Source: an uncultured Thermoproteales archaeon (GTDB lineage: Archaea > Thermoproteota > Thermoprotei > Thermofilales > B20-G17). From it: a stretch of 58,954 bases of DNA. The position numbers and the translations under genes are program-made. Below the pieces are notes generated by a model. The model did no database searches, was not told the origin of the DNA, and was given only the letters and a program-made list of their open reading frames with translations. Shown here one piece after another: positions 12,766-17,400 of this stretch; positions within the stretch are counted from its first letter, which is position 1, and every line of letters begins with the position of its first letter. Location of the stretch: the NCBI GenBank assembly GCA_964522205.1, contig CAZFTG010000003.1, positions 24,433 through 83,386 on the forward strand. The letters are read 5' to 3'.

Positions 12766-13596
12766 CTACTTTAACGAGGGAAATGGAGTAGATGTGATGG
12801 GTCTAAACATTTCCATCCTGATCTCTCTACTCTGTAGCATTGCTCTTATCACCATTCTCCCTAGGTTAGTAAGCTCTACCATTCTCTCCCTACCCCCTCT
12901 ATATTTTACTATTAACCCTCTCTTCTCTAATGAGCTCACCACTCTGGAGAACTTGTTTTTTACAGCAGGTAGTTTAGGATCTTCATTACACCATATTATG
13001 AGTTGGGAAAGTGATTTAGCCTTTCCCCCTCTATCGTAGAGGACCTTTAGGATCATTACGGAGACCTCTCTATCTTCTCCTCTGAAAAGATCGAGTCTGG
13101 CCATGTGACCAGGTAACTCTATTCCTTTCGGTTCACGTCCCCTTACATTATCCTTTTCTTCAACCCAATCTTCAAAGGCGGGAGTATCAGGTGGAGGTAT
13201 GAAATCTCCTCTGCTCTCCGCTGGAACATAGTATAGGTACGCCCTAGGAAACATTAAGGCTACCATGGTTGTAGAGGAAACGGCTATAGGGGGCATATCA
13301 GTTACATCTATGAGTACCTCGCACTTATTCTCCTGGATCTCGTTCCTTACAATAGCGTATATAGTAGAGAAAATATTCTCTTGGGATAGTGGGTTAACTG
13401 GTACTAGTCTTGGCTCAAAAAAGGCTAACATCTCTTTTAGTTTATTAGCATTCCTTCTCGACACTCTACCATAGCTGTCATCTTTCCTATCATATAATAT
13501 GTATATCCTCTCTATACCCTTAGTCTTCATAATATGCCTAAGTCCATCTAATATGAGTGTTGGGTGGAAGCCTACGTAGTTTATGGTGATTGCCAT
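12766..13596 (-). CDS. CARF-like Rossmann + winged-HTH regulator (Csa3/DUF6293-like)
   Basis: YVGFHP, IERIYILYD, VLIDVT, LYYVPAE; C-terminal wHTH FSRVVSSLEKRGLIVKYRGGRERMVELTNLG. Confidence 0.8.
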   Translation of the reverse strand: MAITINYVGFHPTLILDGLRHIMKTKGIERIYILYDRKDDSYGRVSRRNANKLKEMLAFFEPRLVPVNPLSQENIFSTIYAIVRNEIQENKCEVLIDVTDMPPIAVSSTTMVALMFPRAYLYYVPAESRGDFIPPPDTPAFEDWVEEKDNVRGREPKGIELPGHMARLDLFRGEDREVSVMILKVLYDRGGKAKSLSQLIIWCNEDPKLPAVKNKFSRVVSSLEKRGLIVKYRGGRERMVELTNLGRMVIRAMLQSREIRMEMFRPITSTPFPSLK

Positions 13597-13640
13597 GGTA
13601 GCTCAACAGTACGCTATATTTGATACTGTAATTATCTATG

Positions 13641-13674
13641 TGTTACTAAAATATATATCTTTCTAACAGTAACA
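13641..13674. promoter_or_regulatory. 7-bp inverted repeat flanking a minus-strand BRE/TATA-like element upstream of the CARF-wHTH gene
   Basis: TGTTACT 13641-13647 and AGTAACA 13668-13674 surround AAAATATATATCTTTC (minus strand GAAAGATATATATTTT). Confidence 0.4.
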
Positions 13675-13684
13675 TTACTTGATG

Positions 13685-13754
13685 TATTGTATCTATTTTA
13701 TGATATCATGATCATCAATTCGTCCATCTTTAATATCATAATATAGATACAATA
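13685..13754. repeat. 22-bp inverted repeat (21/22 match), 26-bp spacer, in the divergent promoter; putative operator
   Basis: TATTGTATCTATTTTATGATAT (13685-13706) versus ATATCATAATATAGATACAATA (13733-13754); single mismatch at 13697/13742. Confidence 0.85.
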
Positions 13755-13856
13755 ACTGGCATATTGGTCTTTCACAAAGTAGGGATATTGTAGTAGAGTT
13801 TGAAATACCATAGTGTCCTTTTTAGCTATTCGTTCGTAAGTAGAGAGAGTGAGAGT

Positions 13857-14894
13857 ATGGTGAAAGTATACGCTCCATGTACTGGGATGACAGAGAAACT
13901 GAGGATAGATGGGATTACAAATGTAATTAAAGAGCTTAAGAGAATGTATAACGCTCCTAGGTCTATGGAGCTTACACTAAATGGAAAGGTTATACTATCG
14001 CCTTATCCTATACTAAGGATAGGTTCTAGAATTCTAAGAGGTTATTACATCTCGTATAGTAGGTTTAAAAGTTTAGATCCCATTCCGCACGCTAAAAGAG
14101 TCCTAGCAGTAGATGCATCTATAAAAGTACTGTACAACTGCGGTCCTTATAAAATAGTAGTATCTAAGATAGCCTGGGGACTATGGAGGGGGTTCAATAA
14201 GAGGATTGGAGGAAAGAGATACGCTATTGCTATAGTCTTGAATAGATCTGAAGCTGCTGAATGGCTTTTAGAGATAGAGCTACAAGAAGTTCTCAAGAGA
14301 GTTAATCTAGTAGGAAAAGGGGACTACATTCTTTTGGATAGAGCTTTAATGGCAGTTCCTGCACTCAGAAGAGCTACTAGGGAGAGATTCGAAAAACTGG
14401 ACAAACTTGTGAATTTGAGAAGAGCTATTCTCGTGGGTATATGTAAATCATCTAGACTTAAGCTAAATACGGGGGAAAGCCTCATAGGATACCTCGCATA
14501 TTTAGCCACAAAGAGATTGAAAGGAGTATCATGGTACTACTATCCTATATTCAGGCACTCTACACTGCCTCCATGGTACATAGGTGACATAGTAGTATCT
14601 AAGTTAGGTGAAGACTCCGAGGAAGTGTTCAGAGTAGATATCTCTAGGAGAGCTCTCCTCACTAGGGATATTGAAATAGTACTTGGAGAGTTAGCATTCA
14701 TGCAAGATCACGGTATTCCTGGATATCCTTACCCCCTAAAGGGGGTACACGATGAGTCTAGAATAAGTGATGATGAATTAAAGTGGATAGCCTTGAGATT
14801 TCTAGATGAACTGAAAGAGGAAGGCATACTAGAGAAGTTTATAGTGACTACTAGATCCTCCTCATTCAGAGAGAGATACTTATGGGGTGTGTAG
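13857..14894 (+). CDS. nurA: NurA-family 5'-3' nuclease
   Basis: LAVDAS, ILLDRAL, VGICKSS, GYPYPLKGVHDESRI. ATG 13857 preferred over TTG 13800. Confidence 0.88.
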   Translation: MVKVYAPCTGMTEKLRIDGITNVIKELKRMYNAPRSMELTLNGKVILSPYPILRIGSRILRGYYISYSRFKSLDPIPHAKRVLAVDASIKVLYNCGPYKIVVSKIAWGLWRGFNKRIGGKRYAIAIVLNRSEAAEWLLEIELQEVLKRVNLVGKGDYILLDRALMAVPALRRATRERFEKLDKLVNLRRAILVGICKSSRLKLNTGESLIGYLAYLATKRLKGVSWYYYPIFRHSTLPPWYIGDIVVSKLGEDSEEVFRVDISRRALLTRDIEIVLGELAFMQDHGIPGYPYPLKGVHDESRISDDELKWIALRFLDELKEEGILEKFIVTTRSSSFRERYLWGV

Positions 14895-14895
14895 T

Positions 14896-16497
14896 ATGAG
14901 AGTGGGAGTAGTAGTATGGGTTGAAGGGCTAACACTAAAGTTCAGAATAGTGGAGGGTGTCAGGATTGATAGGGGGCAACTCCTCAAGATCATAGATGGA
15001 GATAAAAAGTTCATATTAAGAGTCTTTGACTTTAAACCCGAATCCTTACTTACTCCAGCGGAGATATCCAGATTAAGTCATAGGAGAGAACATGGTGAAG
15101 ACGTTATACTCTACGATAAATCACTAAGGTTGTATGATACCGCACTAGCCATTATACTCTGTCAAGTGGAGGAAGATGGAATTGTACATGGACCTACCTC
15201 AGTACCAGCTTTATTTACTGAAGTTGAGGAACTGGATAAGGTAGACTTACAGCAATTAAACCTAGATGATGGAGATATCATATTGGGTACTGTAAGATCA
15301 GGGCATAGAGCTACCGATGTAAGGATTACTATAAAGGGCGATGCCGCATTTCCACATCATATACTCGTATGCGGTGTAACAGGAGCTGGTAAGAGTAATC
15401 TCGGTAAGGTCTTAGCCTTCTCTGTTCTAATGAACCCTGAACCAAAGTATAGTCTAGTACTTTTCGACTCGGAGAGTGAGTATTTTAAGGGTTCTCCTCC
15501 TGACCAGTACGGATTAGCTCACGTACCGGAGTCTGAGGTAAGACTACTTTACGTAACCTCCTCAGTAGATGAGCCTGGTAGGTATACTGTGACTCTCAAT
15601 TTCGAGGGTGATGTCATAGAAAGAAGTATACTAATGCATCCTCTAGAAATATCATATTCTCAATTACACCCACTTGATTTCATACTCACAGGAGATTTCA
15701 CAGCTCCACAGGAGGAACTATTATGGCTAACATGGAAAGTGAAAAGAGATGATTGGTTAAATTTCCTACTAGAATCTCCCTCTTCACTAATATGGAGGGT
15801 TCTGAGGAAGATGATTCATATCAATACTATAAACACAGCTAAGAGGAAGTTAAAGTATATGCTAGGAGATGGTGATATATTTAAACCAGAACCTCTAGAT
15901 ACTCATCTTCTTCAGACGATAGTAGGTTCGGTCGGTAGAGGGAGAGTAGTAATCCTTGATACTCCACATGCTACTGAGGGAGAGGAAAAGCTCCTAGCGA
16001 CTGTAGTAGCTAGAAGGATCTTTAGTATATACGAAGAGATGAAAAAGAGTATACCTAAGGAGTGGAGCAGGCTTCCTTACGTACTCATAATGGTAGAAGA
16101 AGCTCATAAATACCTCTCAAGGAACCCAATCGGTGGGAGTGATTTTAGGGAGAATATATTCTCCATAATAAGTAAACGTGGTAGGAAGTATAAAATAGGA
16201 GGTCTATACATAACTCAGATGCCTGGAGAGCTCATAGAACCCGTTATAAGACAATCTTTAACCAAGATAATACTATCACTACCTACAAAACCCGATTATC
16301 AAAAGATCATCCAGTATAGTCCTTATCTGGATGAGGCTGAACAGGAGATCAAGACCTTAGATAGAGGAGAGGCTCTCCTAGTATCTCCCCCCTCTGGCAT
16401 AAGATTTGCAGTACCGATAACGATATTTGACTTTAACGAACTCGTAAGGTATAGGTTAACAGAACAACCAAGGCAGGAGGTCAGTATGCCTATTTAG
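14896..16497 (+). CDS. herA: HerA/FtsK-family ATPase with N-terminal HAS-barrel-like region
   Basis: Walker A GVTGAGKS, Walker B IMVEEAH, arginine finger KRGRKY, ITQMP. GGGGTG RBS before ATG 14896, 1 bp after the nurA stop. Confidence 0.92.
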   Translation: MRVGVVVWVEGLTLKFRIVEGVRIDRGQLLKIIDGDKKFILRVFDFKPESLLTPAEISRLSHRREHGEDVILYDKSLRLYDTALAIILCQVEEDGIVHGPTSVPALFTEVEELDKVDLQQLNLDDGDIILGTVRSGHRATDVRITIKGDAAFPHHILVCGVTGAGKSNLGKVLAFSVLMNPEPKYSLVLFDSESEYFKGSPPDQYGLAHVPESEVRLLYVTSSVDEPGRYTVTLNFEGDVIERSILMHPLEISYSQLHPLDFILTGDFTAPQEELLWLTWKVKRDDWLNFLLESPSSLIWRVLRKMIHINTINTAKRKLKYMLGDGDIFKPEPLDTHLLQTIVGSVGRGRVVILDTPHATEGEEKLLATVVARRIFSIYEEMKKSIPKEWSRLPYVLIMVEEAHKYLSRNPIGGSDFRENIFSIISKRGRKYKIGGLYITQMPGELIEPVIRQSLTKIILSLPTKPDYQKIIQYSPYLDEAEQEIKTLDRGEALLVSPPSGIRFAVPITIFDFNELVRYRLTEQPRQEVSMPI

Positions 16498-16505
16498 GAG
16501 GATTA

Positions 16506-16784
16506 CTATAATTCAATACCAAAGGCTTCAGCAAAACGTTCTATCTTCTTAAATTCTGATAGAAAGTCAAATCCCTTCTTGGTCAAGTAGTATAAGGTAT
16601 GATCCTCAATCTTCCTCTCAACTATTAATCCTCTGCTTTTTAATTCTTCTAGGTACTTTAGTAGCCTATCATATGGCATATTGGCTTCACACATTATCTG
16701 TGTTATTTTAGCACCACTACTCATCTGCAAAACTCTCATTATATCTACCATAATCCTTATCTTAGATCTTCTACTTTTCCTCAT
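16506..16784 (-). CDS. Small winged-HTH transcriptional regulator (COG3432-like)
   Basis: RRSKIRIMVDIMRVL, ITQIMCEANMPYDRLLKYLEEL, YYLTKKG. Confidence 0.85.
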   Translation of the reverse strand: MRKSRRSKIRIMVDIMRVLQMSSGAKITQIMCEANMPYDRLLKYLEELKSRGLIVERKIEDHTLYYLTKKGFDFLSEFKKIERFAEAFGIEL

Positions 16785-17400
16785 GATACGAGATCACCTT
16801 AGATAATATATAGAGTATCACTAGTGATCCTATGAAGTACGTACATCGAGATGCTATGTAGAATTCTTCTACTAATGAGAGAAGTGCTATTAAATTAATT
16901 ATATGAGCGAAGAGCATAAGAGTGAAACCTATAGGTAGTAATAGAGATCCCCTTTTCTCGCTAAAGTGTATCAGGATGAGTTGAAATATTATATAGAGTA
17001 GAAGTAGTATACTTAGAATACTAGTGAACATATGTATTTTGATCTGTAGTAGTAATGGTAGTATGCTCATCATTTTCTTACTTCTCTTTAATTCCGTAGA
17101 GTAACTTACTGCTATGAAGATGTAAGCTATAACTTCTGATATAGATGATATCATGCTGGAGTAGGTGGATACTAATGCTATAAATATTCTTGCGGGTCGT
17201 AAGAAAAGAATAGATATGAGTACTAATGCATGACTTATGAATCCTGAGGTCAGCATTAAAAATCCTATCGAGATCAGAAGGAATGCTTTCTTCTCTGAAA
17301 TTCTATAAGCCTTAAGTGCATAGTAGCTTACCAATACTGTTATACATCCGGAGATCAGATCGAAGATCATGGTCGATAGATAGAGTAGTAGTCCTGACAT
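16771..17400 (-). CDS. Multi-pass (about 6-7 TM) membrane protein
   Basis: Successive hydrophobic helices; 14-bp overlap with the wHTH gene. Confidence 0.8.
   Translation of the reverse strand: MSGLLLYLSTMIFDLISGCITVLVSYYALKAYRISEKKAFLLISIGFLMLTSGFISHALVLISILFLRPARIFIALVSTYSSMISSISEVIAYIFIAVSYSTELKRSKKMMSILPLLLQIKIHMFTSILSILLLLYIIFQLILIHFSEKRGSLLLPIGFTLMLFAHIINLIALLSLVEEFYIASRCTYFIGSLVILYILSKVISYHEEK

Follow-up and report, generated by a model that had tools for sequence, protein, structure and literature searches.

Organisation of the locus

In the window, by which the whole analysed stretch of 58,954 nt is meant, a gene for a regulator of the DUF6293/HFX_2341 type stands back-to-back with a two-gene operon encoding paralogues of NurA and of a HerA-type ATPase (Table 1). 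The divergent control region between them carries an inverted repeat with arms at 13685–13706 (TATTGTATCTATTTTATGATAT) and 13733–13754 (ATATCATAATATAGATACAATA), each 22 nt long and separated by 26 nt, with 21 of 22 positions (95%) complementary, in agreement with a preliminary description of this DNA. That description had proposed either an operator for the neighbouring winged-helix protein, possibly occupied by two dimers, or a cruciform-forming site, and had pointed to a TATA-like sequence overlapping the right arm. The latter (TTTAATAT, 13729–13736) is present but unconserved in relatives, and the conserved TATA boxes are the two listed in Table 1, from whose positions transcription starts were deduced. 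The regulator TATA box lies 50–59 nt from the ATG in all loci, and a purine-rich AGAAAG is situated on its upstream side (minus strand). Ahead of nurA, a block conserved in relatives (GTTATTAT) precedes the TATA box by 15–16 nt.

Table 1. Genes, promoter elements and candidate binding sites of the control region (positions within the window)
Feature	Position	Strand	Remarks
Regulator gene, 276 aa, DUF6293/HFX_2341 type	12766–13596	-	CARF-like Rossmann domain and C-terminal winged helix; presumed to bind the sites below
O3, weaker full site ACAGTACGCTATATTTGATACTGT	13606–13629		Between regulator TATA box and ATG; probable transcription start region
Isolated half-site GTTAC	13642–13646		Just downstream (in the regulator's direction) of the regulator TATA box; conserved TAC columns, 27 genomes
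Regulator TATA box ATATATAT	13651–13658	-	Invariant or nearly invariant columns, 20 and 27 genomes
Isolated half-site ACAGTAAC	13666–13673		Upstream of regulator BRE/TATA; conserved columns AC.GTAAC
O1, putative operator ATTGTATCTATTTTATGATATCAT	13686–13709		Core GTATC-N8-GATAT at 13689–13706; left arm of the repeat
O1–O2 spacer, 20 nt	13710–13729		Length constant, sequence unconserved
O2, putative operator TTAATATCATAATATAGATACAAT	13730–13753		Core ATATC-N8-GATAC at 13733–13750; right arm of the repeat
Unconstrained stretch, ~50 nt	13754–13803		Between O2 and half-site AATACCAT
Half-site AATACCAT	13804–13811		Consensus GTTAYYAT; adjoins BRE position of the nurA promoter
nurA-herA TATA box TTTTTAG	13819–13825	+	Conserved TTTTTA block
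nurA paralogue	13887–14894	+	Pfam NurA, E 2e-8; start probably ATG 13887
herA-type ATPase paralogue	14887–16497	+	Pfam DUF87/HerA, E 1e-14; overlaps the nurA stop codon by 8 nt

Composition and uniqueness of the inverted repeat

Within the assembly (1.70 Mb, 105 contigs, 39% G+C), this was the sole inverted repeat with ≤1 mismatch in 22 nt and a spacer of ≤60 nt, and no repeat of such quality arose in five local-block shuffles that kept the local composition. The preliminary description had called it the longest inverted repeat in the window; it is the best near-perfect one there, but two longer pairs exist, which reach just 75–79% complementarity. A search of the whole genome allowing up to four mismatches returned nothing else resembling an arm, and the 12-mer TATTGTATCTAT occurs genome-wide in the two arms alone, so the element is not a dispersed or mobile repeat. 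The same 12-mer had been suggested as a half-site with which a regulon could be defined, an approach that yielded chance-level matches with one mismatch only.

Comparison with 27 related genomes resolved each arm into a palindromic site, GTAWC-N8-GWTAC, with an extended 24-bp form, ATGGTAWC-N8-GWTACCAT. The cores of both window copies depart from the shorter form by one mismatch each, leaving one degenerate pentamer per copy (GATAT in O1 and ATATC in O2). On this comparison, the inverted repeat is composed of two head-to-head copies of one putative 24-bp palindromic operator with an 18-bp pentamer-N8-pentamer core, and it presents itself as a single large inverted repeat because two sites with asymmetric, A/T-rich 8-bp cores face each other.

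Conservation of position, spacing and orientation

An alignment of the intergenic regions (20, then 27 genomes) was almost gap-free, with sharply bounded conserved blocks and unconstrained DNA between them. At 17 of 20 loci O1 and O2 were in identical positions, and further loci had them there with variant half-sites. The start-to-start distance between the two sites was 44–46 bp in 23 loci and 35 bp in one (approximately one helical turn less), the distance between the regulator TATA box and O1 was 38–41 bp, and the distance from the start of O2 to the nurA TATA box was 84–88 bp in all loci where that TATA box was located. Compared with the same-genus relative, O1 (24/24 positions) and O2 (22/24) were identical or nearly so, while identity was 75% in the spacer and 52% in 13754–13803.

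The information content of the spacer was approximately zero in the 27-genome alignment, and the spacer was GC-rich in GC-rich relatives. Dyad symmetry was absent from it (66 of 273 symmetric pairs complementary, compared to 72 ± 7 in shuffles). By eye, the spacers of several relatives seemed to contain small palindromes, as if a hairpin extended inwards from the arms, but the pooled symmetry was below the shuffled expectation and such an extension was rejected. In three loci (L013, L014, and L044), the 8-nt cores are direct repeats of each other rather than inverted (direct matches 6–8/8, inverted matches 1–3/8), and in three others (L009, L016, and L018) the orientation of the cores is ambiguous. 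The direct-repeat lineages and the asymmetric, unconserved spacer argue against a hairpin or cruciform, contradicting that part of the preliminary description, and for protein binding. Judged from these alignments, the universal feature of O1 and O2 is position and phase, rather than head-to-head orientation.

Two groups of relatives depart from the common form of the sites. In the Thermofilaceae (L019, L036, L037, L040, and L045), variant operators (GGTACGCTTTCCCnGAAACC) occur ~90–165 nt upstream of the regulator ATG. These sites (GTACG-N8-GAAAC) are internally asymmetric, yet still mirror images of each other, an arrangement that simply placing one homodimer on each site does not account for and that hints at a higher-order symmetric assembly instead of two independent dimers. 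In a metagenome-assembled genome (MAG) from the Methanomethylicia (L042), GTWAC-type full and half-sites fall within 1–170 nt upstream of the regulator ATG in a different arrangement, with one full site 10 nt and another 49 nt before the ATG and three isolated half-sites. The recognition helix predicted for this regulator is nearly identical to that of the window regulator.

Genome-wide specificity and linkage to the regulator gene

A symmetric position weight matrix (PWM), built from the sites of relatives and scanned over the whole genome, ranked O1 first (21.9 bits) and O2 second (19.4 bits), and the next match (12.7 bits) was at shuffle level; beyond the two arms, this search for a regulon found nothing above that level. 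Taken alone, O3 does not rise above background (PWM score 10.5); its position is conserved, as are its GTA...TAC.GTA columns, and it is 92% identical to its counterpart in the same-genus relative.

The exact double-site pattern (GTAWC-N8-GWTAC-N26–28-GTAWC-N8-GWTAC) was searched in 41 related genomes, among which are Thermofilales-type and ‘Thermoprotei’ MAGs, some from Guaymas Basin. It was present once per genome in 13 of the 41, and a reversed control pattern gave no matches in the same set. The double site adjoined the regulator gene in 12 of these 13 genomes; in the 13th it was located at a contig edge, where the regulator was undetected. The occurrence of strong sites at one locus per genome indicates a strictly local circuit. 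Together with the phylogenetic footprint and the adjacency of a Csa3-like CARF and winged-helix gene (see below), this uniqueness supports the suggestion of an operator for the neighbouring protein, and a pair of 5-N8-5 palindromes, constant in position and in helical phase, fits the idea that two dimers are accommodated.

The regulator gene itself was detected in 35 of the 41 genomes, spanning the order, and almost always as a single copy. It was back-to-back with nurA-herA in every locus with sufficient flank, including the Methanomethylicia MAG, a member of another class. Beyond this regulator-nurA-herA unit, synteny held within the genus only. An HTH_45 winged-helix gene and an overlapping gene for a protein with multiple transmembrane segments (16506–17400), convergent on herA, adjoin the module in the same genus only and, from this distribution, lie outside the conserved three-gene unit.

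The regulator as a Csa3-like protein

In a Pfam scan, the window regulator matched PF22665, the C-terminal winged helix, with E 2e-5 and 25.2 bits, just below the cut-off of 27, and nothing in this genome reached E 1e-5 with PF19810, the N-terminal domain (now named HFX_2341_N). Precomputed domain assignments give PF19810 together with PF22665 for a 99%-identical cluster and for many homologues. An AlphaFold2 model from a 26-sequence alignment (pLDDT 88.5, pTM 0.83) had its best fold matches in the PDB with two structures of Csa3 from Sulfolobus solfataricus, 2wte (E 8e-9) and the cA4-containing 6wxq (E 5e-8); CARF ring nucleases, Csm6, Card1, and Can2 came next. Identity to Csa3 in the fold alignment was 16–17%. 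A sequence search of the PDB recovered matches for the C-terminus only, to MarR-type winged helices, and the CARF domain emerged by fold search. By its best matches, the protein is predicted to be a Csa3-like CARF and winged-helix regulator of the DUF6293/HFX_2341 type, and from the linkage of sites and gene we infer that it binds O1 and O2.

The second residue of the predicted recognition helix varied with the half-sites, GTATC/GATAC half-sites being present in 14 of 14 loci with Asn and in 1 of 12 loci with Ala, a correlation confounded by phylogeny, as the Asn/Ala split coincides with the family split and counts as one or two evolutionary events.

The presumed target operon, nurA-herA

The herA paralogue is 55–91% identical and syntenic in all related loci with a flank that reaches it. 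A canonical operon of nurA (335 aa; C4:71700–72707), herA (498 aa), mre11 (377 aa), and rad50 (898 aa) was located at C4:66371–72707. As this operon resides on another contig, the pair in the window constitutes a second, divergent paralogue, with a NurA score of 31.8 bits compared to 116.8 bits for the canonical copy. A third, weak NurA-like match was observed at C9:25599–26033.

The open frame of the window nurA reaches back to ATG 13857 or TTG 13800. The start codons of relatives and the coding conservation align near 13887, and the ATG at that position is probably the start. In the same-genus relative (L002, 1150–1260), an in-frame TAA follows the ATG equivalent to 13857, so that its first usable ATG corresponds to 13944; nevertheless, 13827–13886 is 85% identical between the window and this relative.

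Comparison with characterised CARF regulators

The pair of sites has a close formal parallel in the binding sites of Csa3b, which recognises a pair of 18-bp imperfect palindromes (TTTTC-N8-GAAAA) ahead of a basal promoter (PMC5389559). Like these sites, RI and RII of the type I-A cas promoter (Pcas) of Sulfolobus islandicus (PMC5389559), the window sites are two 18-bp palindromes of pentamer-N8-pentamer form, here GTAWC-N8-GWTAC, which are positioned upstream of a basal promoter, adjoin the gene for a CARF and winged-helix regulator and, among relatives, are retained together with it. The layouts differ: RI and RII form a direct tandem immediately upstream of the BRE/TATA, whereas the sites described here have starts 44–46 bp apart, stand between two divergent genes and are accompanied by additional weak sites covering both promoters. 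The regulator is of the DUF6293 type and not Csa3 proper, it acts without a Cascade partner in the scheme proposed here, and its target would be nurA-herA and not cas genes. The inner half-site of the Thermofilaceae variants (GAAAC/GTTTC) resembles the Csa3b half-site.

A second parallel is offered by Csa3a, for which S. islandicus has two binding sites ahead of its stand-alone nurA-herA operon, at −136 to −52 (PMC5587795). Both cases combine a CARF and winged-helix regulator with two sites upstream of a second nurA-herA that is separate from the mre11-rad50 operon. Csa3a, however, is an activator encoded in a CRISPR adaptation locus and acts on many promoters, while the regulator in the window is back-to-back with its presumed target and has strong sites at that locus only.

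To our knowledge, DUF6293/HFX_2341 proteins are widespread in archaea and only one of them has been studied. That protein, HFX_2341 of Haloferax mediterranei, is the founding member of DUF6293/HFX_2341_N and mainly a transcriptional repressor; it resembles Csa3a by HHpred, is vertically inherited and is unlinked to CRISPR (PMC11434293). It was described as a global regulator, with no binding site or direct target defined and with nurA and herA unmentioned (PMC11434293). The window regulator appears to belong to the same family (PF19810 and PF22665 in close homologues), shares the Csa3-like predicted structure, the vertical inheritance and the lack of a CRISPR link, and differs in having, as proposed here, a single local target, nurA-herA.

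In crenarchaeal thermoneutrophiles, pairs of HerA and NurA also occur as accessory genes of type III CRISPR systems (PMC6546367). No cas genes were found at the locus in the window. A model for Cmr2, the Cmr2-type Cas10, had no match in this genome and had matches in 12 of 41 relatives, compared to 35 of 41 with the regulator. Without Cmr2, it is unlikely that the sensor depends on Cas10-made cyclic oligoadenylate in this organism, and the absence of a Cmr2-type system raises the question of which signal the sensor reads.

Proposed control of the divergent promoters

The reading favoured here, to which a probability of roughly 0.7 is assigned, is that O1 and O2 are paired operators of the neighbouring Csa3-like (DUF6293) regulator, which would control its own gene and the divergent operon of nurA-herA paralogues. 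Each operator copy would be occupied by a dimer of the regulator encoded directly to its left. O1 and O2 would be the strong sites of a control region of fixed geometry, which would also contain O3 over the probable transcription start of the regulator gene, the half-sites flanking the regulator TATA box, and the half-site at the nurA BRE. Conservation of the helical phase points to dimers in mutual contact or on a common bent path of the DNA; the O1 and O2 dimers may interact on a defined helix face and promote cooperative occupancy of the weak sites near the promoters. In this way a single protein could place both divergent promoters under its control, combining autoregulation with control of nurA-herA, and a ligand at the CARF-like domain would alter the occupancy of the sites.

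Cooperativity, ligand and regulatory sign are what we infer from this layout and from characterised relatives. For the sign, repression relieved by a ligand is favoured over activation at slightly better than even odds, since O3 and the half-sites lie across core promoter elements and HFX_2341 is itself a repressor. O1 and O2 precede the two TATA boxes by ~40 and ~85 bp, an activator-like location, and repression would therefore depend on the weaker promoter-proximal sites. A more specific version can be put forward only tentatively: the operator pair may nucleate a repressor complex of fixed geometry, looped or wrapped, by which a CRISPR-free, vertically inherited CARF-type sensor of a nucleotide signal gates a dedicated NurA-HerA machinery for DNA-end processing. 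Were this to hold, ATGGTAWC-N8-GWTACCAT would be the first DNA-recognition code for DUF6293/HFX_2341 and could be used for target searches in other archaea.

Alternative explanations

The same protein and sites could serve activation, with O1 and O2 as an upstream activating sequence at which the ligand-bound regulator recruits TFB/TBP and turns nurA-herA on. A position adjacent to the BRE is a common seat of archaeal activators, and the nurA-proximal half-site abuts the BRE; O1 and O2 are upstream of both core promoters, and Csa3a activates nurA-herA through two upstream sites (PMC5587795). However, O3 covers the probable start of the regulator transcript and half-sites bracket the regulator TATA box, a layout typical of repression, and the one family member that has been studied, HFX_2341, acts mainly as a repressor. 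On this evidence activation is less probable than repression, yet a serious alternative.

It is improbable that the operators serve another transcription factor, encoded elsewhere, while the DUF6293 neighbour has a different target. The location of the sites upstream of both promoters would suit such a factor, and further winged-helix genes are nearby (HTH_45 at 16506–16784), but the sites and the regulator gene are kept together across the order and into another class, whereas HTH_45 and the flanking genes are syntenic in the genus only. The uniqueness of the double site in each genome, its place beside the regulator gene in nearly all genomes that possess it, and the match of the 5-N8-5 geometry to Csa3b also oppose this explanation.

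A function through base-pairing, whether in a DNA cruciform or in the RNA hairpin of a transcript across the intergenic region, appears very unlikely. The single-stranded DNA fold is stable (−12.7 kcal/mol, z = −4.5), 77% of the cells in the pairing matrix over 20 genomes are paired, and 15 pairs have double changes; the arms covary more than shuffled columns (0/500), in a test inflated by relatedness and by the shared motif. Against pairing, the cores are direct or of ambiguous orientation in the six loci named above, the central pairs fail in 5–7 of 20 genomes, the spacer has no symmetry, and the loop varies in length by no more than ±1 bp or one helical turn, a constraint for which a hairpin has no need. 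The element is upstream of both conserved TATA boxes and hence probably not transcribed. Rfam offered no credible match, its sole hit (13686–13753) being to the plant miRNA precursor MIR6224, with 18 bits compared to a gathering score of 171 and an E-value of 0.33, an artefact that any long A/T-rich hairpin would produce.

Practically no weight can be given to a MITE remnant (or other terminal inverted repeat) or to a pair of replication-origin ORB elements: inverted arms do flank a short spacer and the element is, like origins, unique and intergenic, but it exists as a single genomic copy, a target-site duplication is absent, which the preliminary description had rightly taken to speak against a MITE, its position is orthologous and fixed over the whole order, all three orc1/cdc6 genes lie elsewhere (contigs C45, C14, and C1), the 20-nt spacer is GC-rich in GC-rich relatives and supplies no AT-rich unwinding element, and the local skew merely tracks the coding strand, without a skew feature.

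Significance and other members of the family

The element is best read as an ordinary but well-preserved genetic switch, and neither as a hairpin nor as a mobile element. As gene regulation it is conventional; its value is the annotation of a family of unknown function with a concrete DNA motif and presumed target, the locus supplying a precise and testable candidate operator motif, a fixed promoter architecture, and a single clear presumed target, the second NurA-HerA pair. The Csa3 pattern of a CARF sensor, paired 5-N8-5 palindromes, and control of nurA-herA would be extended to organisms in which a Cmr2-type type III CRISPR system is undetected.

In other families of the Thermoproteota, no BLAST-detectable nurA or herA was present within 1.5 kb of PF19810 homologues (L046, 2404–3369, and L062, 2–1078), and the linkage to nurA-herA is thus confined to particular lineages. 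The neighbour of one such homologue is a Cas4/RecB-like nuclease with a C-terminal Cys cluster, and another adjoins a likely DNA methyltransferase (NPPF motif, judged by eye). The family of DUF6293-type regulators seems to partner with different DNA-processing genes.
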